Shown here in pieces: positions 1 to 8,940 of a stretch of 8,940 bases of DNA; position 1 is the first letter of the stretch; the number at the start of each line of letters is the position of its first letter. The position numbers were made by a program, and so were the translations under genes. Source of the stretch: a virus (Duplodnaviria > Heunggongvirae > Uroviricota > Caudoviricetes); IMG/VR virus record IMGVR_UViG_2700989521_000019; one strand, given 5' to 3'. Below the pieces are notes generated by a model. The model had not been told where the DNA came from, searched no databases, and saw only the letters and a program-made list of their open reading frames with translations.

Positions 1-1218
1 ATGAACAAACTGAGCGATACCTTGCTAAGGAAACTTCATGGTAAGCCAGCGGAGAAAAACACGTTTTATAGTGATGGCGGAAACCTGAGCGTGAAATATT
101 TAACATCAGGGAAATTGACCTGGTATTTCACATACAGGGCCGGAACGGGAAGGGAGACACGACCCGAACGCATTAAGCTGGGAAGTTATCCTGATCTGAG
201 CCTGAAATCAGCCAGGGAAAAAGCCGCCCAGTGTCGCGCATGGCTGGCAGAGGGGAAAAATCCACGTCATGAGCTTAATTACACCGTACAGGAAGCGTTA
301 AAGCCGGTAACGGTTGGCGATGCGCTCACCTACTGGCTTGAGTATTACGTAAAGGAAAACCGCGTGGATTATATCGCCCTGAAAAGGCGACTTAATAATC
401 ACGTAATACAGCAGATTGGTGCTATGCCGCTGGATAAATGCGAGCTACGGCACTGGCTGGCCTGTTTTGACCAGGTGGCAAAGCGAACGCCTGTTACTGC
501 CGGATTCGTGCTACAGGCGTGCAAACAGGCGCTTAAGTTCTGCCGTAGGCGGCGCTATGCAATCAGCAACGTTCTGGACGATCTGAACGTGGCGGACGTT
601 GGGAAAAAACCGGATATAAGCGAACGTGTCTTAAGTAACAAAGAACTTGGCGAATTATTGCAGGCACTGGACAAAAAAATATTCTCCCCTTACTACGTCG
701 CGTTAATCCGCCTCCTGATTGTCTTCGGAGCCAGAACGGTAGAACTGAGGTTATCGGAGATCGGGGAGTGGGATTTTACGGAAATGCTATGGACCGTTCC
801 GAAGGAGCACAGCAAAACGAAGGTCGCAATATTCCGGCCCATACCGGAAGCGATCCTGCCGTTCGTCACGCAGCTGGTGGAGCAGAACAGGCACACGGGC
901 TTATTGCTGGGGGAAGTGAAACAGGAGGCCAGCGTATCGCAGTATGGAAGATTAGCGCACAGGAGGCTTAATCATCCTCACTGGTCACTGCATGACATCC
1001 GGCGCACCTTTACAACCATGCTGAACGATTTAGGCGTTGATCCGCATGTCGTGGAGCAGCTTACAGGCCACCAGATGCCAGGAATGCAGCGAGTTTATAA
1101 TCATTCCCGTTATCTGGATGCTAAACGCAATGCGCTGGATATGTGGACGGAGCGGTTAGGGATACTGGCGGGAACACATGAAAACGTAACCACGCTACCA
1201 GTAGCCAGAAGAAAATAA
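1..1218 (+). CDS. int: Tyrosine recombinase / phage integrase, P4-like family (405 aa). Begins at window edge so the true start could lie upstream.
   Basis: N-terminal arm-binding-type region (LSDTLLRKLHGKP...FYSDGGNLSVKY...WYFTYR) typical of P4-family integrases; C-terminal catalytic signature with box I Arg (GARTVELR), HxxR (LHDIRRTF), GHQ and terminal Tyr (RVYNHSRY). Long uninterrupted ORF with the expected int-alpA neighbourhood. Confidence 0.9.
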   Translation: MNKLSDTLLRKLHGKPAEKNTFYSDGGNLSVKYLTSGKLTWYFTYRAGTGRETRPERIKLGSYPDLSLKSAREKAAQCRAWLAEGKNPRHELNYTVQEALKPVTVGDALTYWLEYYVKENRVDYIALKRRLNNHVIQQIGAMPLDKCELRHWLACFDQVAKRTPVTAGFVLQACKQALKFCRRRRYAISNVLDDLNVADVGKKPDISERVLSNKELGELLQALDKKIFSPYYVALIRLLIVFGARTVELRLSEIGEWDFTEMLWTVPKEHSKTKVAIFRPIPEAILPFVTQLVEQNRHTGLLLGEVKQEASVSQYGRLAHRRLNHPHWSLHDIRRTFTTMLNDLGVDPHVVEQLTGHQMPGMQRVYNHSRYLDAKRNALDMWTERLGILAGTHENVTTLPVARRK

Positions 1219-1235
1219 TTTTTTTCGTGTTTTTT

Positions 1236-1251
1236 CAGTATGCGCATACTG
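1236..1251. repeat. Perfect 16-bp palindrome CAGTATGCGCATACTG just downstream of the int stop; candidate protein-binding site
   Basis: Read directly: cagtatgc|gcatactg is its own reverse complement; preceded by a T-rich tract and followed by a partial repeat gtatatgcga. Confidence 0.5.
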
Positions 1252-1260
1252 TATATGCGA

Positions 1261-1310
1261 ACAGATACAACGTGCAACAATGAGCAACAATGTGGAACAA
1301 CCACGAACAA
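1261..1310. repeat. Five tandem 10-bp units each ending in (A)ACAA (acagatacaa cgtgcaacaa tgagcaacaa tgtggaacaa ccacgaacaa); helically phased repeat array
   Basis: Read directly; the 10-bp periodicity places AACAA on one face of the helix, consistent with phased binding sites or intrinsic bending, in the int-alpA intergenic region. Confidence 0.5.
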
Positions 1311-1584
1311 GAGGCGAAAAAGCATACAGATTTATAAGTGGCTGATTTTTAATGTGTCACTGGTTTTTTATACACTAGCGAATCACTCTTTAAAGAGCGA
1401 GAAAAAAGGCATGAAACAATATTTTATGCCTTTGTATTAACATGAATTTAAAATATTTTATTCTTACTGTTTCATTTTCTGTAAATCATACATCCTCAAT
1501 ATTTGCCATTCATCACTCTAGCGGGAACAATACGACACAATAAGACACCTGATGACTCTTTAAGAAACGAAAGGGGGGGCAATA

Positions 1585-1773
1585 GTGTTAAGCACTGATC
1601 GGTTTATACGTGAAAAAGAATGCGAAAAACTAACCGGCCTTAGCCGTACGTGTCGCTACCGCCTGGAAAAGGCCGGACAATTCCCATCACGTCGTAAACT
1701 TGGCGGTCGTTCCGTTGGCTGGTCTTTATCCGAGGTTCTGGCCTGGAAGGATAGCTGCAAGGCAGTTCATTAA
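1585..1773 (+). CDS. alpA: AlpA/Vis-family transcriptional regulator (prophage CP4-57-type regulatory protein / excisionase-like), 62 aa, GTG start
   Basis: Sequence FIREKECEKLTGLSRTCRYRLEKAGQFPSRRKLGGRSVGWSLSEVLAWKDS matches the AlpA-family pattern (LTGLSRxTIYRL...FPxPxKLGxRSVGWxxSEVxxW). Strong SD-like AAGGGGGGG 5 nt upstream of GTG 1585. Position immediately after int is typical. Confidence 0.8.
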   Translation: MLSTDRFIREKECEKLTGLSRTCRYRLEKAGQFPSRRKLGGRSVGWSLSEVLAWKDSCKAVH

Positions 1774-1919
1774 TCACGCTGGCGGCACGCAGCCGCCACA
1801 CATCAATCATCTGAACACAGAGCTATAACCATGAAGATTGAATATACGCCAGAACGTGGGCGGGGATTCGTTCGCCCTGGTGAAACTGAAAAACAACAAA
1901 ATTGGGGTTTTTCAGGTAT

Positions 1920-1948
1920 AAAAAAAGCGGCCCCGAAATGGAGCCGCC
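1920..1948 (-). terminator. Intrinsic terminator for the minus-strand unit (RHH-like gene and downstream)
   Basis: On the minus strand the RNA reads ggcggcuccauuucggggccgc followed by UUUUUUU: about 8-bp GC-rich stem (one G-U), 5-nt loop, 7-U tail. Confidence 0.5.
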
Positions 1949-2273
1949 TTTCTGAACAGATAACCCGCTGCGCCGTTTGTGTGTGTGATCCCAAACATAA
2001 GCACGGGGATGATAGCCGCTATCAGGCTGGTGGGCAATGCAATCAGTCTGGTTCAGTTCGTTGCCATACCTGCAATGAGCGCTTTTCCCTGTACTCTTTA
2101 AGGAATTGCTCAAGGGCAAAAGCACATGGTGCGAATCTTTCTGATTCATGCTCTATCTTTCTGCGCCGTCTTTTCCGTGCCGGTGATAATGTTTTGGTCA
2201 ATTCTTTATCGGTCATTGTGTTGTCCTGCATAGCAATGCGCCGTAATACCTCACACCACGGCGCTGATAGTGA

Positions 2274-2453
2274 TTATTCTGATTCTTTGGCCTTGCGGCG
2301 CTGGCGGCGTTTGATCTCGCCTTCAAGTGCCGAAACGATAAATTGCCCTGTACTTTCGCCATCTTCCTTTAAATTTTCTACAGCATCAGCTATTGCGTGT
2401 GGTACTCGAGCCTCAAGCTTTTTGGATTTTGCATTAACTGCTTTTGTTGCCAT
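2274..2453 (-). CDS. Small ribbon-helix-helix-like DNA-binding protein (59 aa), candidate repressor of the divergent promoter region
   Basis: Chosen start is the internal ATG (MATKAVNAKSKKLEARVPHAIADAVENLKEDGESTGQFIVSALEGEIKRRQRRKAKESE) with GAGGAA SD 7 nt upstream; the longer 106-aa ORF upstream part is hydrophobic low-quality sequence. Pattern beta-strand (KLEARVP), helix (HAIADAVENL), helix (STGQFIVSALE) resembles CopG/Arc RHH fold; basic C-terminal tail. Family assignment is from pattern only. Confidence 0.55.
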   Translation of the reverse strand: MATKAVNAKSKKLEARVPHAIADAVENLKEDGESTGQFIVSALEGEIKRRQRRKAKESE

Positions 2454-2474
2454 ATCTGATTTCCTCGTTATTAG

Positions 2475-2554
2475 GTGGCTGACAGTATACACACAAGAAA
2501 ACGGAAAAACACTATTGACGTGGCTGACACCCGTTACTAATATAGTGGCTGACA
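2475..2554. promoter_or_regulatory. Divergent promoter/operator region: three direct repeats GTGGCTGACA (2475-2484, 2520-2529, 2545-2554) overlapping a sigma70-like plus-strand promoter (-35 TTGACG 2515-2520, 17-nt spacer, -10 TAATAT 2538-2543)
   Basis: Read directly. Repeat 2 abuts the -35 and repeat 3 abuts the -10/TSS of the rightward promoter; repeat 1 lies in the leader/promoter zone of the leftward RHH-like gene. Promoter hexamers are by consensus matching only. Confidence 0.5.
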
Positions 2555-2647
2555 CCTTTATCAAGGTAATCGATGAAAAGACAAAGCCCCGCAAGTGTCG
2601 TTACCACTCGCAGGGCTTCTAACCAACAACGTAAACTAGGAGCCGTT

Positions 2648-2845
2648 ATGGTTGCTGTAAATCATATACCACACCTTGTACACACACAAACGGCCTTTGT
2701 GTGGCGTTTTCTGGCACTGAGTGCCGGAGAATCTCAAATCATCCACGTAACCGCCTGGACGGAACGCGAAGCGCGTAACCGTTGCCCGTCCGGTTGTGTT
2801 GCTGTATTTGCCGCCCGTATTCGTCAGGAGGTGCGCCATGATTAA
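2648..2845 (+). CDS. Small protein (65 aa), first gene of rightward operon; possibly Icd-like (cell-division-inhibitor-like) family, assignment uncertain
   Basis: ATG 2648 with TAGGAG SD 7 nt upstream; MVAVNHIPHLVHTQTAFVWRFLALSAGESQIIHVTAWTEREARNRCPSGCVAVFAARIRQEVRHD. The FVWRFLAL motif recalls small Icd-like proteins annotated in P4-like elements; from memory, not verified. Confidence 0.5.
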   Translation: MVAVNHIPHLVHTQTAFVWRFLALSAGESQIIHVTAWTEREARNRCPSGCVAVFAARIRQEVRHD

Positions 2846-3050
2846 TCTGTCACTTACTGACCTTAACCGCATTCAGTTTCGTGAGAAATTCACAGGGCAG
2901 CTACTGGTCAATGTGGATAAAGGTCGCGTGGTGTGTAATTACCACTTACCAGATGAAGCAATTGTCGCCACAAGGGAATCATTACAGGAAATCACAAAAC
3001 GTGCCGGAATGATTAACACGAATATTCAGGGGATGCTTTATGCACAATAA
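2838..3050 (+). CDS. Hypothetical protein (70 aa)
   Basis: ATG 2838 overlaps the stop of the upstream gene (translational coupling); AGGAGG SD 6 nt upstream. MINLSLTDLNRIQFREKF... No recognised family. Confidence 0.55.
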   Translation: MINLSLTDLNRIQFREKFTGQLLVNVDKGRVVCNYHLPDEAIVATRESLQEITKRAGMINTNIQGMLYAQ

Positions 3051-3279
3051 AACCACACCGGACGCAGCCGCCGAAGCCATCAAAACGCTGATGCACGCGC
3101 TGATTGATATTTCTGTTATCGCGGACAGGGCACATAAGCACGCCACCAGCGAAACAGAATATGCCGGTGCTTTCGTTCCTCACTCACTGGCTGTCATGCA
3201 ATTTAGTGCTGATACGGCGCTGAATGAGGCCAAAGCTATCCTGATTGCTGATTGTGAAAATGGGGGGGGTTATGCGTGA
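3040..3279 (+). CDS. Hypothetical protein (79 aa)
   Basis: ATG 3040 overlaps upstream stop (3048-3050); CAGGGG SD upstream. MHNKTTPDAAAEAIKTLMHALIDISVIADRAH... No recognised family. Confidence 0.5.
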   Translation: MHNKTTPDAAAEAIKTLMHALIDISVIADRAHKHATSETEYAGAFVPHSLAVMQFSADTALNEAKAILIADCENGGGYA

Positions 3280-3505
3280 TGATCGTTTTAATTCCCTGAA
3301 ACAGGAATTTTCCGGCGTTCCTGATGATGCGGCTGATGCGCTTTCGTCAATGCCAGAACTTATTAGAGCGGCTTTTTTCTTACTTTCCACGAGAGAATAT
3401 AAATCAACGGGGCTTGATGTACTGAATATCGCCGCCGATTATGCGGAATATGTGGCAGAGGCGCGTTATAGAAGAAAATTTCCTGAGGATGTAAGCCATG
3501 CGTGA
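3272..3505 (+). CDS. Hypothetical protein (77 aa)
   Basis: ATG 3272 preceded by a GGGGGGGG run (3262-3269); overlaps the previous gene by 8 nt. MRDDRFNSLKQEFSGVPDDAADALSSMPELIRAAFFLL... Start chosen by RBS; the ORF track start at 3245 is an alternative. Confidence 0.5.
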   Translation: MRDDRFNSLKQEFSGVPDDAADALSSMPELIRAAFFLLSTREYKSTGLDVLNIAADYAEYVAEARYRRKFPEDVSHA

Positions 3506-3731
3506 TATTTACCACCAAACAATAGACCGCGCATTTCTTGCACTTTCTCACAGTGAAAACATGATGGAAATATTGCGCATATGGCTTGAAACACTTGGCG
3601 ACAATGAACGCGACAAACAAAAATCAAGAATTGCCACAGCATTAATAACGCTTCTTGAGCCTGTAATAATGGAACTGCAAGAAATAGATCTATTGCACGA
3701 CAGATATAAAGAACAGCACACCGGAGAATAA
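3498..3731 (+). CDS. Hypothetical helical protein (77 aa)
   Basis: ATG 3498 overlaps the upstream stop; GAGG upstream. MRDIYHQTIDRAFLALSHSENMMEILRIWLETLGDNERDKQ... No recognised family. Confidence 0.5.
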   Translation: MRDIYHQTIDRAFLALSHSENMMEILRIWLETLGDNERDKQKSRIATALITLLEPVIMELQEIDLLHDRYKEQHTGE

Positions 3732-3736
3732 AAATA

Positions 3737-4036
3737 ATGAAACTTAAATATTCTGGCTTAACTGCCAGTGGCAACACTCACCCTAAATTTACGCGCGGTG
3801 ATATTTACCGCGACCAGTACGGCGGCACGGTAATGATTAAGGACGTGGAAGAACGGCGCGTAACCTACCGCCGTGAAGGTTACGAATATGATTGCGTGAT
3901 GCCTGTTTATCAGTTCCGGCGTGATTTTTCTCTGGTACAGACCGCGCCGCATAACGTGCCCACCAGCAACGCCAGGGCACGGGCAAACATCCAGAAGCTG
4001 AAAACCATGGTTAACGGATTCAGGGGCAAGAAATGA
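3737..4036 (+). CDS. Hypothetical protein (99 aa)
   Basis: ATG 3737 with GGAGAA SD; the stop overlaps the start of the ATPase gene (ATGA-type overlap at 4033-4036). MKLKYSGLTASGNTHPKFTRGDIYRDQYGG... No recognised family. Confidence 0.55.
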   Translation: MKLKYSGLTASGNTHPKFTRGDIYRDQYGGTVMIKDVEERRVTYRREGYEYDCVMPVYQFRRDFSLVQTAPHNVPTSNARARANIQKLKTMVNGFRGKK

Positions 4037-5433
4037 AAAGCGCACCGAACTTAAAAAAACAGCCTTACGACAAGATGACCGAAGTCATTATTTTTGCGGG
4101 TAGTGATGCCTGGGCACATGCGAAACAGTGGCAGGAACAGGACGGGCGACTGGCTGGCGATAATGTGCCTCCCGTTGTGCTGGCTGATGATCAACTGGAT
4201 GAACTGGCAGACCTGAGAATCATCGACGAGGGGCGCTATTGTGTCCGGCTGTACAAGGCAGGCCACATCAGGCCATCAAATATTAATGCCATTGCGCACA
4301 AGCTGGCGGCGGCGGGTGTAACTGATGCGAATTATTACCCCGAAGGGATGCACAGCCATATGCGGGAGAACTGGCGCGAATACCTGGAACGGGTGCGCGG
4401 GAAAGAGCCGGCGGAAGAAAAAAACCACCAGCGAAAAACCACGCTACCGATGAGCGTTGGATCTACCGGATACGACACGCAACTGGATTACGTGGTTAAG
4501 GGGATTATTCCGGCGGTATCGCTATGCAGCATATACGGGGCTAGCGGGTCCTATAAATCATTCCTTGCCGGATCGTGGGCGTGCCATGTTGCCACTGGTC
4601 GCCAGTGGGGAGGCCGCAGGGTTGCACATGGTGCGGTTCTCTATGTGGTTGGTGAAGGCGGTATAGGTGTTCCGCGTCGTGTAAAAGCCTGGGAGGTTGT
4701 GCACGATGAGCAGGTGAAAAATCTGTATCTGGTAAACCGCCCCATCTTTCCGGCTGCCCCGCTTGATGTTGATGAAATGGTTATCGCTGCCCGTCAGGTG
4801 GAGCGGGAAACGGGTAAACCTGTACGCATGATTATTCTGGATACGCTGGCGCGTTGCTTTGGTGGGAATGATGAAAATGATTCCCGTGATATGGGGGCGT
4901 TTATCCGTGGTTGTGACGAACTGAAACGACGCACAGGGGCCACGGTGCTGGTGGTTCACCATTCCGGCAAGGATGAGACGAAAGGCGCGCGCGGTTCCAG
5001 TGCATTTCGTGCTTCGCTGGATGCTGAATACCGGATACGCAGGGAGGACGCAGGAAGCGAAGCGCTGGTTATCTCATGCACCAAAATGAAGGACGCGGAG
5101 GAACTCAAAGAAGCCGCATATGACTTACGCGTGGTGGAGCTTTTTACCGACGCTGACGGTGAATTAATCACGTCGCTGGTGGTGGTGGATGATCCGCGCC
5201 CTCCTGTTGAACTGGAGCGCATCGAGGAGGCAGGGAACAAGACGGAAAACCATACCGCGCTATGGGGGTGCATCCGTTCACGCACACAGAACGGCGACAA
5301 GTGCACGATCCCGCTGTTACGTGATGACATGAAAAAGCTGGGGTATGAAATGAAAAACTTCCGGCGCTGGCTGTACAAGCTGGAAAAAGATGGGGTTATT
5401 CGTATCGATGGGGATGATGTAGCGCCGCTATAA
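4033..5433 (+). CDS. RecA-fold / AAA-type ATPase, RepA- or DnaB-like replicative helicase-initiator of the element (466 aa); no recognisable primase domain
   Basis: Walker A-like GASGSYKSF (YGASGSYKSFLAGSW), Walker B-like hydrophobic strand plus acidic residue (VRMIILDTLARCFGGNDEND), downstream VLVVHHSGKDETKGARGSSAF resembling DnaB/RepA-type motifs. About 160-aa N-terminal domain of unassigned function. Long ORF with AGGGG SD. Confidence 0.85.
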   Translation: MKSAPNLKKQPYDKMTEVIIFAGSDAWAHAKQWQEQDGRLAGDNVPPVVLADDQLDELADLRIIDEGRYCVRLYKAGHIRPSNINAIAHKLAAAGVTDANYYPEGMHSHMRENWREYLERVRGKEPAEEKNHQRKTTLPMSVGSTGYDTQLDYVVKGIIPAVSLCSIYGASGSYKSFLAGSWACHVATGRQWGGRRVAHGAVLYVVGEGGIGVPRRVKAWEVVHDEQVKNLYLVNRPIFPAAPLDVDEMVIAARQVERETGKPVRMIILDTLARCFGGNDENDSRDMGAFIRGCDELKRRTGATVLVVHHSGKDETKGARGSSAFRASLDAEYRIRREDAGSEALVISCTKMKDAEELKEAAYDLRVVELFTDADGELITSLVVVDDPRPPVELERIEEAGNKTENHTALWGCIRSRTQNGDKCTIPLLRDDMKKLGYEMKNFRRWLYKLEKDGVIRIDGDDVAPL

Positions 5434-5622
5434 AAGTGAGGAGCAAAAGCGAGGGGGATAGAAAGAGGGCCAAAATTAGCCCGCTCTCCCTCACTTTTCG
5501 ACCTGTATACATCCTCAAAAGTGAGGGGTAAAAAAATACTTATGAAACACACACATAGAAAAACCGAAAATCCCAACTGCGACGAAGTGAGACGCTTGAA
5601 AAAGTGAGGCGAAAAAGTGAGA
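5433..5622. repeat. Iteron-like cluster: six copies of core AAGTGAG (consensus AAAGTGAGG) at 5433-5441, 5489-5497 (inverted), 5518-5526, 5585-5593, 5601-5609, 5614-5622, plus degenerate copies (AAAGCGAGG 5446-5454); candidate ori or operator array
   Basis: Read directly in the 200-bp intergenic region between the replicative ATPase gene and the ssb-containing operon. Confidence 0.55.
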
Positions 5623-5633
5623 GGTTGCGAGAA

Positions 5634-5885
5634 ATGACCCAAAAACGCAGAGACAGAACAGAGCCAAAATATAAAGCGTTAGACATGACTGAGCACACCT
5701 TAAAGGTGGCAATCAGAACGATAGACCGCCACACGCGGGAAGGATACGCGAAGGAACATCCCGACCTGATAAGCGCATTCATGACCACGGTGGCGGCAAA
5801 CTTTGCCACGCTGACAGAACGGGAGATTGCCGAAGCGGAACAGGTAACAACCATCAACGTTAAAACCGGAGAGGTGGAATTATGA
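5634..5885 (+). CDS. Hypothetical protein (83 aa); start ambiguous (GTG 5604, ATG 5634 or ATG 5685)
   Basis: ORF in frame with plausible GAGAGG SD before ATG 5634; stop overlaps the ssb-like start. MTQKRRDRTEPKYKALDMTEHTLKVAIRTIDRHTREGYAKEHPDLISAF... No recognised family. Confidence 0.45.
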   Translation: MTQKRRDRTEPKYKALDMTEHTLKVAIRTIDRHTREGYAKEHPDLISAFMTTVAANFATLTEREIAEAEQVTTINVKTGEVEL

Positions 5886-6292
5886 CGGCACAGATAGCCG
5901 CTTACGGGCGGCTGGTGGACGACCCGCAGGTAAAACAGACCAGCAAGGGCACACCGATGACGCTGGCGCGTATGGCGGTATCTTTGCCATGCAGCCAGGC
6001 ACAGGACGGACAGGCGACGTTATGGTTATCGGTCATCGCATTTGGCAAACAGGCCGACTTCCTGGCTAAACATCAAAAAGGCGATGTTGCCAGCGTATCC
6101 GGCACGATGCAGGTAAGCCAGTGGACCGGACAGAACGGAGAAACGCGGCAGGGCTGGCAGGTTATCGCAGACAGCGTAATCAGTGCCCGCGCGGCACGTC
6201 CAGGCGGGAACAGACGCAAAACCACAGGCACACAGGGTAATCAGCCACCAGCGGGAGGCGATGACCCTTACGGTGATGATATTTCGTTCTGA
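5882..6292 (+). CDS. ssb: Single-stranded DNA-binding protein-like (SSB family), 136 aa, element-encoded
   Basis: N-terminal OB-fold-like pattern (IAAYGRLVDDPQVKQTSKGTPMTLARMAVSL...WLSVIAFGKQADFLAKHQKGDVASVSGTMQVSQWTGQNGETRQ), Gly/Gln/Pro-rich linker and acidic C-terminal tail DDPYGDDISF resembling the SSB tail DDDIPF. GGAG SD; start overlaps upstream stop. Confidence 0.7.
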   Translation: MTAQIAAYGRLVDDPQVKQTSKGTPMTLARMAVSLPCSQAQDGQATLWLSVIAFGKQADFLAKHQKGDVASVSGTMQVSQWTGQNGETRQGWQVIADSVISARAARPGGNRRKTTGTQGNQPPAGGDDPYGDDISF

Positions 6293-6302
6293 GGGGGTGA
6301 CG

Positions 6303-6575
6303 ATGGTACATGACCGCATAGCGGAGGAACTGGAGGCGAAAGGCTTTTACCGGAGGGCGGCGGCGCGATGGGGTGAAGTCATGCAGCTGGTGGAGACAGG
6401 CAAGGAACGGCATCACATCACGATGCGACGGCTGGAATGTTCAAGGAAGGCACAGAGGGCACCGGAGCCGCCGGATAATTTCGGAGACCTGAAAAAGGCA
6501 GTCGATCGCACTTATGCCGAAATGGGTATAGATGGTGCTGGTGATGAAATATGGCGCAATTACCAGGACAGCTAA
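6303..6575 (+). CDS. PerC-family transcriptional regulator-like protein (90 aa)
   Basis: Start ATG 6303 with GAGGGGG SD 5 nt upstream (the longer ORF from 6183 overlaps ssb and lacks an RBS). N-terminus AEELEAKGFYRRAAARWGEVM matches the conserved PerC motif (EEKGLWRRAAxRW) as remembered. Confidence 0.65.
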   Translation: MVHDRIAEELEAKGFYRRAAARWGEVMQLVETGKERHHITMRRLECSRKAQRAPEPPDNFGDLKKAVDRTYAEMGIDGAGDEIWRNYQDS

Positions 6576-6581
6576 TCAAAC

Positions 6582-6605
6582 AGCCGGAGAAATCCGGCTT
6601 TTTTT
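6582..6605 (+). terminator. Rho-independent terminator after the perC-like gene
   Basis: AGCCGGA-GAAA-TCCGGCT (7-bp stem, GNRA tetraloop) followed by a T6 run. Confidence 0.75.
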
Positions 6606-6701
6606 GCACCAGTTGAAACGGTATGGCGCATTACCGGGTTTTCGTCACGGTCAGGCATAGTTACTATCTGAAACAAACAGACACAACAGAGGAAAAAAAC
6701 A

Positions 6702-6926
6702 ATGCCGATGAAATTTGATGAGATATTAAAACAGCGTGATAAATACCATGCTGACAACATGGAGACGATGAGCATCAATGATTACCGCGCATTCCTGGAG
6801 ACGGGCGCACTGATTGAAAAGGATCAGCATGGTTTTGTGAGATGTGCTCTATCCGGTGAAATGCTGGCGGTAAATCCTGAACAGATAGATGCATTGATAG
6901 AATTTCTGAAAGAGATCAGAGACTGA
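6702..6926 (+). CDS. Hypothetical protein (74 aa)
   Basis: ATG 6702 with GAGGAA SD; MPMKFDEILKQRDKYHADNMETMSINDYRAFLETGALIEKDQHGFVRCALSGEMLAVNPEQIDALIEFLKEIRD; bounded by terminators on both sides. No recognised family. Confidence 0.55.
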   Translation: MPMKFDEILKQRDKYHADNMETMSINDYRAFLETGALIEKDQHGFVRCALSGEMLAVNPEQIDALIEFLKEIRD

Positions 6927-6945
6927 GCCAGCACACAGCACACAT

Positions 6946-6968
6946 AGCCGGAGCAATCCGGCTTTTTT
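6946..6968 (+). terminator. Rho-independent terminator, near-duplicate of the one at 6582-6605
   Basis: AGCCGGA-GCAA-TCCGGCT (same 7-bp stem, GNRA loop) followed by a T5 run. Confidence 0.75.
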
Positions 6969-7007
6969 GCGCCCAAAAAAAGCCCGGCGAGTCAGATTTC
7001 ATCAATC

Positions 7008-7208
7008 ATGGACAGCCTCCCGCTTACTATGCAAAGGAGCTTCCCACAGATTACCCCCGCCATGCTGGATAGGCTTAAAAGGGAAGTGGTTAAAGCCTGT
7101 AATGCCAGTGCCAGAGTTGCCGACAACCTCCCACAGATACTGGCTGATTACTTGAAAGAAACAACCGGAAACGTACCGGAAAAGTTGCTACAGAAGAAAG
7201 GCGAGTAA
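7008..7208 (+). CDS. Hypothetical protein (66 aa); weak call, start and RBS unclear
   Basis: ORF only; no convincing SD for ATG 7008, 7029 or 7062. MDSLPLTMQRSFPQITPAMLDRLKREVVKACNASARVADNLPQILADYLKETTGNVPEKLLQKKGE. Confidence 0.3.
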   Translation: MDSLPLTMQRSFPQITPAMLDRLKREVVKACNASARVADNLPQILADYLKETTGNVPEKLLQKKGE

Positions 7209-7463
7209 CAGACGCGCAATTATTGAACAAAACTGAGAAACGACATGAAAGCGTCATAAATCGCCATTTTAGATGATTACCGTGTCGTTTCTTTTTATTG
7301 TGTATCTATTTAAAAACAAATAGTTATGTTCGAGAAGTACCGACATGCTTTTTCCAGAAAAATTTTCATAAACAGATAAAAACCGCGAGGTCGCCGCCCC
7401 GTAACGGGCCATAATTCCAGGAAGGACCCGACGACACCAGACTATCAGAGCGATGGGGGCACA

Positions 7464-7745
7464 ATGACAGAAGCCGAACTACTGGGATTAATCCGCCGCG
7501 TTACCGGAATCAGCCAGCAGCATGACGAACAGGCCACGCAGCCGGACAGCGTGACCGCCGAAAATTACGCGCGTGTGGTTGCTGAGGTGATGCGCCGTGA
7601 TGGTATCCAGCTTAATGATGTGGATATGCGCAACATACGGATCCGCGTTCTTGAAATGCTGGCCTACAATCGCCGCGTGGCACTGTATCGGGAAACGGAG
7701 AAAATTACGTACCACTGGAAGAAGCCGGAGCGGTTACGGCGTTAA
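7464..7745 (+). CDS. Hypothetical protein (93 aa)
   Basis: ATG 7464 preceded by a GGGGG run; ORF with balanced composition (MTEAELLGLIRRVTGISQQHDEQATQPDSVTAENYARVVAEVMRRDGIQLNDVDMRNIRIRVLEMLAYNRRVALYRETEKITYHWKKPERLRR). No recognised family. Confidence 0.45.
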   Translation: MTEAELLGLIRRVTGISQQHDEQATQPDSVTAENYARVVAEVMRRDGIQLNDVDMRNIRIRVLEMLAYNRRVALYRETEKITYHWKKPERLRR

Positions 7746-7750
7746 CGAGT

Positions 7751-7800
7751 AGCGACATACCGTGACGGAGAGTGACAACCAGTGACACGCCGTGACAAAA
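7751..7800. repeat. Five tandem 10-bp units carrying core GTGAC/GCGAC (agcgacatac cgtgacggag agtgacaacc agtgacacgc cgtgacaaaa); helically phased repeat array
   Basis: Read directly, immediately after the stop of the 7464-7745 ORF; second 10-bp-phased array in the window (compare 1261-1310). Confidence 0.45.
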
Positions 7801-8574
7801 GACGGTTTAACCGTTAATTAAAAATTGACGGGATTTTGTGCTTTCCGGACGACGTGGCCAACGCCATTTTTTAGCGAAAAGTTCTGATTAAGGTCATTGT
7901 CTGAATGGTCATAATGACCACTCCTACAAAACAGGTAAAGCCCACCAGCCTGATTAACAGTTAACCGGAAAAAAATCCGGTAGCCCCGTTATGGGGATCC
8001 CCATATCAACATTAACGCCCCTCATGAATTAGCGCGCTTCCCCCTGGAAAGATGACCCGCCTGTATATTTCTTGTGTCTATTTGTTCCACGTTGTTTCAT
8101 ACAGTGCACCGAACGGTGTAGTCACTGGTGTAGTCATTTTGCGATTTATGGCACTTTTTGTAGTGAAAACCCCGTTTTTTCTTCCTTTGCTAATAATAAT
8201 GTCTTTTTCGCTCCGTCATCATAACGAAAATCAAACCGCTCAGGTAAAGAAGTGAAAATATTTTGAGTTAATTCTTAAGCTATGATACAAATCAGGCGTG
8301 TTCAACTACCGAGGACAATTATCATCCGCGATGACGAGAAGCAACACTGCGGATAATTGTAATATTATGGACAATTTGTTCAGGACCTTATTTTCAACAT
8401 TTACCCATCTTCGTACCTCATCCACTATCTTGCTCGTAGGTGAGCAGCACTGGCGCAACGCGCTTTAGTCCTTTCTTCTGCCTAAGCTTGCCCTATGCGC
8501 GGGGCTTGACCACTTTACTTTGATTTCGCTGAATTAAGCGAAAATTAAAATAATTCTCTTGCAGGAGAAGGACA

Positions 8575-8940
8575 ATGTATATTTATTGGATTTTATTAGG
8601 CCTGGCTATTGCTACAGAAATTACCGGTACGCTGTCAATGAAATGGGCGAGCGTCAGTGAGGGAAATGGCGGCTTTATTTTAATGCTGGTGATGATTTCT
8701 CTGTCGTATATATTTCTCTCTTTCGCCGTTAAAAAGATCGCCTTAGGCGTAGCTTATGCGCTGTGGGAAGGTATCGGTATTTTATTTATTACCTTGTTTA
8801 GCGTTTTGTTATTCGACGAAAGTTTATCGCTGATGAAAATTGCCGGGTTAACCACCCTGGTCGCCGGGATTGTGTTGATAAAATCAGGTACCCGTAAAGC
8901 GCGTAAACCTGAACTGGAGGTGAACCATGGCGCAGTTTGA
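8575..8940 (+). CDS. mdtJ: Multidrug/spermidine efflux SMR-family transporter subunit MdtJ (121 aa), complete
   Basis: Translation ([33 protein letters not shown]...[21 protein letters not shown]) matches Escherichia coli MdtJ as I remember it; small four-helix hydrophobic SMR protein; AGGAGA SD 7 nt upstream; stop TGA 8938-8940. Confidence 0.93.
8927..8940 (+). CDS. mdtI: Start of mdtI (SMR partner subunit), truncated by window end; only codons MAQF visible
   Basis: ATG 8927 overlapping the mdtJ 3-prime end, reading MAQF, consistent with the remembered MdtI N-terminus and the mdtJI operon arrangement. Only 14 nt visible. Confidence 0.45.

Follow-up and report, generated by a model that had tools for sequence, protein, structure and literature searches.

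An integrative element in tqsA of Shigella dysenteriae is very likely a decayed phage-inducible chromosomal island of the EcCI042 family

The virus record IMGVR_UViG_2700989521_000019 raises the question of whether a short element with an integrase, a replication module and no visible capsid genes is a satellite of a new kind or the remains of a known one. A first-pass annotation of this stretch of 8,940 nt (hereafter the window, the whole of the DNA analysed) had described a compact element of about 7.7 kb ending at position 7800, resembling either phage P4 or a phage-inducible chromosomal island (PICI). We compared the window by megablast with 5,426 complete E. coli genomes and with individual loci carrying related islands. 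The results make it very likely that the window contains a decayed PICI of the EcCI042/EcCICFT073 family, lying within tqsA of Shigella dysenteriae.

The best match among the complete genomes was E. coli 042, in three pieces across 11.75 kb. Window 1-6986 aligned with the tqsA island of 042 (locus L001, 6001-12988) at 99.9% identity, with five substitutions and one 2-bp indel. In 042 this block interrupts tqsA between pntB and mdtJ, and its annotation includes genes for a major capsid protein and a head-decoration protein as well as other open reading frames (ORFs). The published island of this strain, EcCI042, spans 11 kb (FN554766, 1832521-1843554) and has its site in tqsA, the core ATAACAGCA and the cargo genes rgdR and perC (Fillol-Salom et al. 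2018, ISME J, PMC6092414 supplement). The right part of the window had a different best counterpart: positions 6979-8169 matched an intact 11-kb tqsA island (L014, from position 19366) at 99.75% identity over 1,191 bp, and also matched an island of the ycfD-phoQ type (L002, from position 14658). L014 belongs to a set of ten intact islands (L006-L015) retrieved through the exact integrase protein.

The host was identified from draft genomes. The whole window was 100% identical to positions 1950-10889 of a contig (L016) in the Shigella dysenteriae draft assembly GCA_003572005.1. A second assembly (L017) reproduced window 5779-8940 at 99.97%, including both of the deletion junctions described below. 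The exact PerC sequence of the window also carries the name Shigella dysenteriae.

Analysis of the flanks placed the element inside tqsA. Alignment with the empty K-12 tqsA-mdtJ region (L003), which the first-pass annotation had proposed, put the crossover in 042 at a 9-bp core, ATAACAGCA, at tqsA nucleotides 129-137; both core and junction agree with those published for EcCI042. A 38-bp repeat close to each end was a candidate for the att repeat and was discarded, since alignment with K-12 locates the crossover farther out, at the 9-bp core. Left of int, L016 carries 187 bp of island sequence, then an intact attL, the 3' part of tqsA and pntB; int does not belong to a larger element extending leftward. 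The element begins 187 bp left of window position 1 and ends at window position 8169, giving a relic of 8,356 bp (L016 1763-10118) and not the shorter element first proposed. The gene mdtJ does lie to the right, as the first-pass annotation had noted, but the insertion is in tqsA. Nor is the site an unusual one for lacking a tRNA gene: tqsA with this core is listed among the E. coli PICI sites (PMC6092414 supplement). A tRNA scan of the window found no tRNA, and an Rfam search of the window at E values up to 0.1 found no RNA family.

The element is accessory and not core chromosome: the site is empty in K-12 and in most E. coli, and 80% or more of the window is present in only 324 of the 5,426 genomes. 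The island right end adjoined mdtJ in 244 of the same genomes.

Relative to the intact islands, the window carries two deletions. The internal one, of about 2.8-3.0 kb, lies at junction 6979-6987. A 042 segment of about 3.0 kb (L001 12989-15979) is replaced in the window by 366 bp (6987-7352), consisting of the 3' part of a Nu1-like small terminase gene and downstream sequence. In L014 the intact module runs in the order 68-aa ORF, capsid gene (PF03864), decoration gene (PF02924), 137-aa ORF, 180-aa small terminase (PF07471) and 93-aa ORF. Lost from the window are the 68-aa ORF, the lambda-E-like capsid gene, the gpD-like decoration gene, the 137-aa ORF, a cos1-equivalent site upstream of the small terminase, and small-terminase codons 1-107. 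An imperfect microhomology, AAAGCxxG, is common to both flanks of the junction. The right deletion, at junction 8169/8170, removed 184 bp (L001 16798-16981) comprising the final 41 bp of the island, the attR core ATAACAGCA, tqsA nucleotides 1-137 and 7 bp upstream of tqsA. Island sequence abuts the mdtJ upstream region directly at this point, and a search of the window for ATAACAGCA found no copy left.

Both junctions sit in unique sequence and not in repeats that could collapse during assembly, and both were missing from the 5,426 complete E. coli genomes. A 67-aa ORF spanning the right junction was found on 13 contigs, assigned to Shigella dysenteriae wherever the source names the organism; it is present in at least two NCBI assemblies (GCA_003572005.1 and GCA_003572115.1) and under several protein accessions. 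The deleted variant is a real feature of a lineage, because the junction ORF recurs on these 13 contigs. All 17 retained ORFs were full length. The decay appears to have proceeded by deletion only and to be recent, because every surviving ORF is 98.8-100% identical to its counterpart in intact islands. Shigella genomes undergo general erosion, with which a recent decay would fit.

The genes that the first-pass annotation had listed (int, alpA, a RecA-fold helicase, SSB and PerC) were all found by Pfam. The features of the window, from left to right, are as follows.

1-1218, plus strand: tyrosine integrase with a P4-type arm-binding N-terminus, intact (PF13356, Arm-DNA-bind_3, and PF00589, Phage_integrase)
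1219-1584, no strand: int-alpA intergenic region, AT-rich (~35% GC), with promoter-like sites and 10-bp repeats
1585-1773, plus strand: alpA, activator of the island cycle (PF05930, E 5.4e-17)
2043-2231, minus strand: 62-aa ORF, a leftward pair with the YlcI/YnfO gene (annotation of 042, conservation in relatives)
2274-2453, minus strand: YlcI/YnfO-family protein (NCBIfam NF041551, E 1e-16; phrog_949)
2454-2647, no strand: putative divergent control region with 21-bp direct repeats at 2511-2531 and 2536-2556 (repeat search)
2648-2845, plus strand: Icd-like protein (NCBIfam NF033153)
2838-3050, 3040-3279, 3272-3505 and 3498-3731, plus strand: four small conserved ORFs, intact (PHROGs)
3737-4036, plus strand: RgdR (DUF4222), 99 aa, RGD at residues 20-22 (PF13973, E 8e-24)
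4033-5433, plus strand: RepA-family (DnaB/RecA-fold) replicative helicase-initiator, intact (AAA_25, E 2.4e-43)
5433-5622, no strand: replication origin with six AAAGYGAGR iterons, immediately 3' of the replicase
5634-5885, plus strand: 83-aa ORF (phrog_1231)
5882-6292, plus strand: SSB (PF00436)
6303-6575, plus strand: PerC-family regulator (PF06069)
6702-6926, plus strand: 74-aa ORF between terminator hairpins at 6577-6604 and 6941-6968
6987-7208, plus strand: Nu1-like small terminase relic, residues 108-180 of 180 (PF07471 positions 130-162)
~7330-7430, minus strand: complete cos site, with cosQ GGGTCCTTCC and an exact lambda cosN, GGGCGGCGACCT, at 7388-7399
7464-7745, plus strand: conserved 93-aa ORF, the last gene of the island (phrog_1561, E 1e-56)
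8104-8140, plus strand: right-arm repeat with tandem GGTGTAGTCA at 8115-8124 and 8127-8136, with a copy between attL and int
8170-8940, plus strand: host DNA from the tqsA-mdtJ intergenic region onward, 99.1% identical to K-12 (L003 5907-5137)
8367-8468, plus strand: host mdtU/YdgV, upstream ORF of the mdtJI operon, intact (maps to K-12 b4777)
8575-8940, plus strand: host mdtJ (PF00893)

What the deletions left of the packaging region was examined in translation and by profile. The first-pass annotation had reported no capsid or packaging genes. The window indeed lacks an intact gene for a capsid or terminase, but the small-terminase relic at 6987-7208 and the complete cos site at ~7330-7430 had been overlooked. 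The relic keeps 73 C-terminal residues in frame and matches phrog_57 and phrog_1790 in their C-terminal parts only; comparison of translations showed that the winged-helix DNA-binding domain is deleted. Pfam and PHROGs scans of the window detected no other structural or lysis family. The relic has a strong terminator hairpin immediately upstream. The relic ORF, of 66 aa, was also seen on two short Logan contigs with a different lesion. On one of these (L004 168-695) the same ORF is preceded by a separate 96-aa Nu1-like ORF; L004 is read here as carrying a frameshifted small terminase, which would be an independent route of inactivating the gene in related islands.

The cos site has a single exact cosN match, GGGCGGCGACCT, in the window. 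In an alignment with lambda, phage phi4 of CFT073 and EcCICFT073 cos1, the segment at the R3 position of cosB was near-identical to that of phi4. The sequences of EcCICFT073 cos1 and cos2 have been published (PMC6092414 supplement), and cos1 is the site needed for Rpp-dependent transfer (PMC6739421). By position and orientation, the surviving site corresponds to cos2; the cos1 equivalent, upstream of rpp/terS, falls inside the internal deletion. Beyond the cos site, the 93-aa ORF is 100% identical in L001 and L014. The right-arm repeat forms a 38-bp match with L001 5931-5968 and L016 1880-1917, and its GGTGTAGTCA motif occurs three times against 0.27 expected. Within each end of the island, tandem GGTGTAGTCA(C) repeats occur in direct orientation; variants of them are conserved in the ycfD-phoQ islands, and they are probably arm-type binding sites of the integrase.

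The retained left part closely resembles that of mobile islands. The integrase is 100% identical to those of six other tqsA islands, and the exact protein is indexed in 318 blocks. Between int and alpA, promoter-like sites were found at 1437-1464 and 1503-1531 and tandem repeats at 1274-1300 and 1527-1548. This region is probably a helper-responsive, autoactivated alpA promoter, by analogy with EcCICFT073 (PMC6092414). The alpA gene itself is 100% identical in L001, L002, L006, L008 and L014. Positions 2454-2647 form a putative divergent control ('switch') region, in which a promoter-like site at 2515-2543 is overlapped by the 21-bp repeats and a hairpin lies at 2583-2619. A 263-aa plus-strand ORF (1831-2622) overlapping the leftward gene pair is probably spurious. 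This ORF showed no family match and an odd S/R/C-rich composition, and RefSeq calls its 042 counterpart a pseudogene; the two leftward ORFs seem to be the genuine genes here.

Across 2648-3731 the ORFs matched PHROGs 340, 2512/5146, 24341 and 2196; NCBIfam contributed only the YlcI/YnfO, Icd-like and SSB names. The ORFs at 3040-3505 were considered as a frameshifted pseudogene of the single 155-aa ORF of 042, a reading rejected on finding both forms in intact islands. The gene at 3737-4036 corresponds to ECs1581/C1493 of Flockhart et al. (PMC3378721) in size, RGD motif and place just upstream of the replicase; RgdR is a regulator of LEE (locus of enterocyte effacement) type III secretion and of motility (PMC3378721). 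The 93-aa ORF at 7464-7745 had also been a candidate for RgdR and was rejected, since the length of 99 aa, the RGD at residues 20-22 and the replicase-adjacent position fit 3737-4036 (PMC3378721).

The replication module is likewise conserved. The helicase is 100% identical to its counterparts in L002 and L008 and weakly matches the RSF1010 RepA structure 1g8y. The iterons noted by the first-pass annotation were borne out: AAAGYGAGR occurs six times, with one copy inverted, against 0.30 expected in the whole window, and none of 200 shuffled sequences had six or more. The two terminator hairpins around the 74-aa ORF are 89% identical to each other (repeat search, terminator scan). This ORF was present in L001 (042), L002 and L006 and was not detected in L008, L009, L013 and L014; it looks like an optional cassette of moron type, gained or lost by recombination between the hairpins. 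PADLOC assigned no defence family to ten small ORFs of the window.

The host side of the locus yielded observations of its own. The 184-bp deletion stops 405 bp upstream of mdtJ and has probably spared the mdtUJI control region. In L016 a further frameshift affects the 3' remnant of tqsA (833-1762) close to its 3' end, and the products listed for the ynfM region (~13000-14400) do not include ynfM. The frameshifted remnant and the unlisted product are consistent with wider pseudogenisation around the locus.

How far the relic could still function was considered from the cycle of its intact relatives (PMC6092414, PMC6739421). In these, a lambda-, phi80- or 21-like cos helper phage induces alpA, whose product turns on the island operon, and recombination of attL with attR by Int releases the island. 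The RepA-type helicase (Pri/Rep) then fires the adjacent iteron origin with the island SSB, concatemers enter helper capsids through the island cos sites, and Rpp or a TerS homologue redirects the helper terminase. In this copy the internal deletion took away the genes resembling those for capsid and decoration proteins, the equivalent of cos1 and the half of the small terminase that binds DNA, and the right deletion took attR along with the start of tqsA. An intact int, attL and alpA survive, as do the regulatory ORFs, rgdR, ssb, perC, the replicon and its origin, the arm repeats and a single cos site of helper type. The relic is probably still able to respond to a helper and to initiate replication in situ. 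It is very probably unable to excise precisely or to be transferred as a satellite, since it has lost attR, the equivalent of cos1 and the domain with which the small terminase binds DNA.

Several points weigh against a decayed PICI as described here. Its intact ancestor is a composite, with 042 on the left and L014 on the right, and no single full-length parent was found. The function of alpA, the replicon and the cos site is deduced from the integrity of their sequences only. Loss of excision is deduced from the missing attR core, and a cryptic secondary site could lie outside the window.

Other explanations were weighed. The one that survives best does not replace the decay reading and would add to it: the relic may have been retained for host use, through RgdR and PerC, through a TerS fragment that interferes with helper phage, or as a cos decoy. 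Both rgdR and perC are intact; RgdR homologues alter type III secretion and motility even without the LEE (PMC3378721), and PerC-like island proteins can regulate virulence genes (PMC11773190). Residues 108-180 of the small terminase are kept, and in lambda TerS the contact with TerL is placed in the C-terminal part (PMC6739421, PMC9026076). However, the near-100% identity to mobile copies and the recent deletions give no sign of long-term retention, the strong terminator hairpin stands directly 5' of the small-terminase relic, and no PADLOC defence family was found among the small ORFs. We regard retention for host use as unlikely. A more specific form of it is improbable: on infection by a 21/lambda-type phage the anchored relic may be amplified where it sits, diverting or poisoning the helper's terminase and acting as a fixed anti-phage locus. 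The terminase would be hit through cleavage of the chromosomal cos site or through a dominant-negative TerS fragment, and RgdR and PerC would be domesticated regulators. This proposal would draw on the kept activator, the replicon, the helper-specific cos site and the TerL-binding C-terminal TerS fragment.

Very doubtful is the reading as a minimal satellite that still functions, or as a small integrative replicon of a new class, which would do without its own genes for capsid and packaging and move with only int, alpA, the replicon and a single cos site. In its favour, the retained genes are all intact, the helper-type cos site is complete, and some PICIs depend solely on a helper cos site (PMC6092414). 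Against this, the attR core and the final 41 bp of the island are deleted, and the truncated small-terminase gene at the internal junction marks a deletion and not a design. The architecture was seen in S. dysenteriae contigs and in none of the 5,426 complete E. coli genomes, and the left 7 kb is 99.9% identical to a published 11-kb island. Of the two options left by the first-pass annotation, minimal or decayed, the decayed PICI is the one that stands, for intact relatives that have the identical integrase and the same site still possess the capsid and packaging genes lacking here.

A remnant of a P4-like satellite dependent on a P2-type helper has hardly any likelihood: although the integrase has a P4-type arm-binding domain and alpA is distantly related to P4 Vis (PMC6092414), the replicase is an AAA_25 RepA, Psu, Sid, Delta, Epsilon and an alpha-type primase-helicase were not found in the window, the cos site is of lambda/21 type with an exact lambda cosN, and full-length relatives carry lambda E/D-like and Nu1-like genes. 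Equally hard to credit is the view that both deletions are artefacts of draft assembly and the true locus a full 11-kb island, for although the source assembly is a draft and the junctions occur in none of the complete E. coli genomes, the right-junction ORF recurs across the 13 contigs, assemblies and protein accessions given above, L017 independently shows both junctions at 99.97%, and the junctions lie in unique sequence and not in repeats.

The decayed PICI was then set beside the known systems. Its organisation is that of a PICI as defined previously (PMC6092414), with int on the left, alpA, and then the replicase with an adjacent origin, in the order of EcCI042 and EcCIRM12579. PICIs have two att cores; here the attL core ATAACAGCA is kept and the attR core, ancestrally present, is deleted. 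At 8,356 bp the relic falls short of the usual ~11-15 kb, a shortfall fully explained by the two mapped deletions. Descent is indicated by the alignments, in which 6,986 bp match EcCI042 at 99.9% and 1,191 bp match an intact tqsA island at 99.75%. Of the elements for hijacking packaging, the relic keeps the cos2 equivalent and has lost both the equivalent of cos1 and the half of the small terminase that binds DNA. The genes that define P4-like satellites and those that define capsid-forming PICIs (cf-PICIs) were both absent from the window.

Similar to satellite phage P4, the relic has an integrase of P4-type architecture, a regulator of the AlpA/Vis family and a compact size. It differs in that Pfam and PHROGs scans found no sid, psu, delta, epsilon or alpha primase-helicase in the window (the first three of which the first-pass annotation had also noted as absent), in that its cos site is of lambda and not P2 type, and in that there is no evidence of a plasmid mode. 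P4 and PICIs have been explicitly separated (PMC6092414). With no psu, sid or delta and a replicase that is not an alpha-type primase-helicase, the P4-like label given at first does not apply.

The cf-PICIs (e.g. EcCIEDL933; bioRxiv 10.1101/2022.09.08.507074) encode their own HK97 capsid, protease, portal, connectors and terminase, of which the window has none; its relic packaging module is of lambda E/D/Nu1 type and not of cf-PICI type. In other strains, modules of cf-PICI type occur with the identical 405-aa integrase at tqsA, alongside the same left half from alpA to perC. In L006-L015 (10001-21218) the tqsA integrase was linked to three replicase types (AAA_25 RepA, DUF927 and D5_N/DUF5906) and to two unrelated packaging modules, one lambda E/D/Nu1-like and the other with HK97 capsid, S78 protease, portal, connectors and HNH. 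One att site thus shows strong modular mosaicism, and a by-product of this analysis is that one tqsA-specific integrase carries interchangeable replication and packaging modules of both the classical and the cf-PICI type.

EcCICFT073 and EcCIRM12579 are experimentally characterised E. coli cos PICIs at the ycfD(roxA)-phoQ site, with AlpA-driven induction by lambda/phi80/21-type helpers, a Pri-Rep and ori replicon and cos-dependent packaging (PMC6092414, PMC6739421). They share with the window the gene order, largely the same genes and the rgdR and perC cargo, and L002, of this ycfD-phoQ type, is 99.8% identical to strain 042 over 6.7 kb. Unlike the relic, they are complete and mobile, their att core is GGACATATTT (a core recovered from L002 too), and their integrase is 92% identical to that of the window. 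The integrases of L001 and L002, with 92% protein and ~95% DNA identity and nearly the same island-side arms, differ in the core they use, which for L001 is ATAACAGCA in tqsA and for L002 is GGACATATTT in the roxA-phoQ interval; the pair could serve a study of target-specificity switching.

The closest known system is EcCI042. The relic shares with it the tqsA site, the core ATAACAGCA, attL and 99.9% nucleotide identity over window 1-6986. The shared genes and sites are int, alpA, the Icd-like gene, rgdR, the RepA helicase, the iteron origin, ssb and perC, together with the 74-aa ORF, the terminal 93-aa ORF and the arm repeats. Only EcCI042 has the 11-kb length, attR, the capsid-like and decoration-like genes, the 137-aa ORF and a 144-aa Rpp-type protein; it has two cos sites where the window has one. 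The window relic derives from a 180-aa Nu1-like small terminase and not from an Rpp. This gene order and near-identity support the first-pass reading of a PICI-type satellite and speak against an undescribed class of replicon: the element is of an already published kind. The locus offers a base-level example of PICI decay in Shigella, of little import beyond annotation. For annotation, it shows that what looks like a compact satellite devoid of packaging genes can be no more than a known 11-kb PICI minus about 3 kb and one att site, and that the ends and novelty of such an element should be judged against its intact relatives and the empty site.

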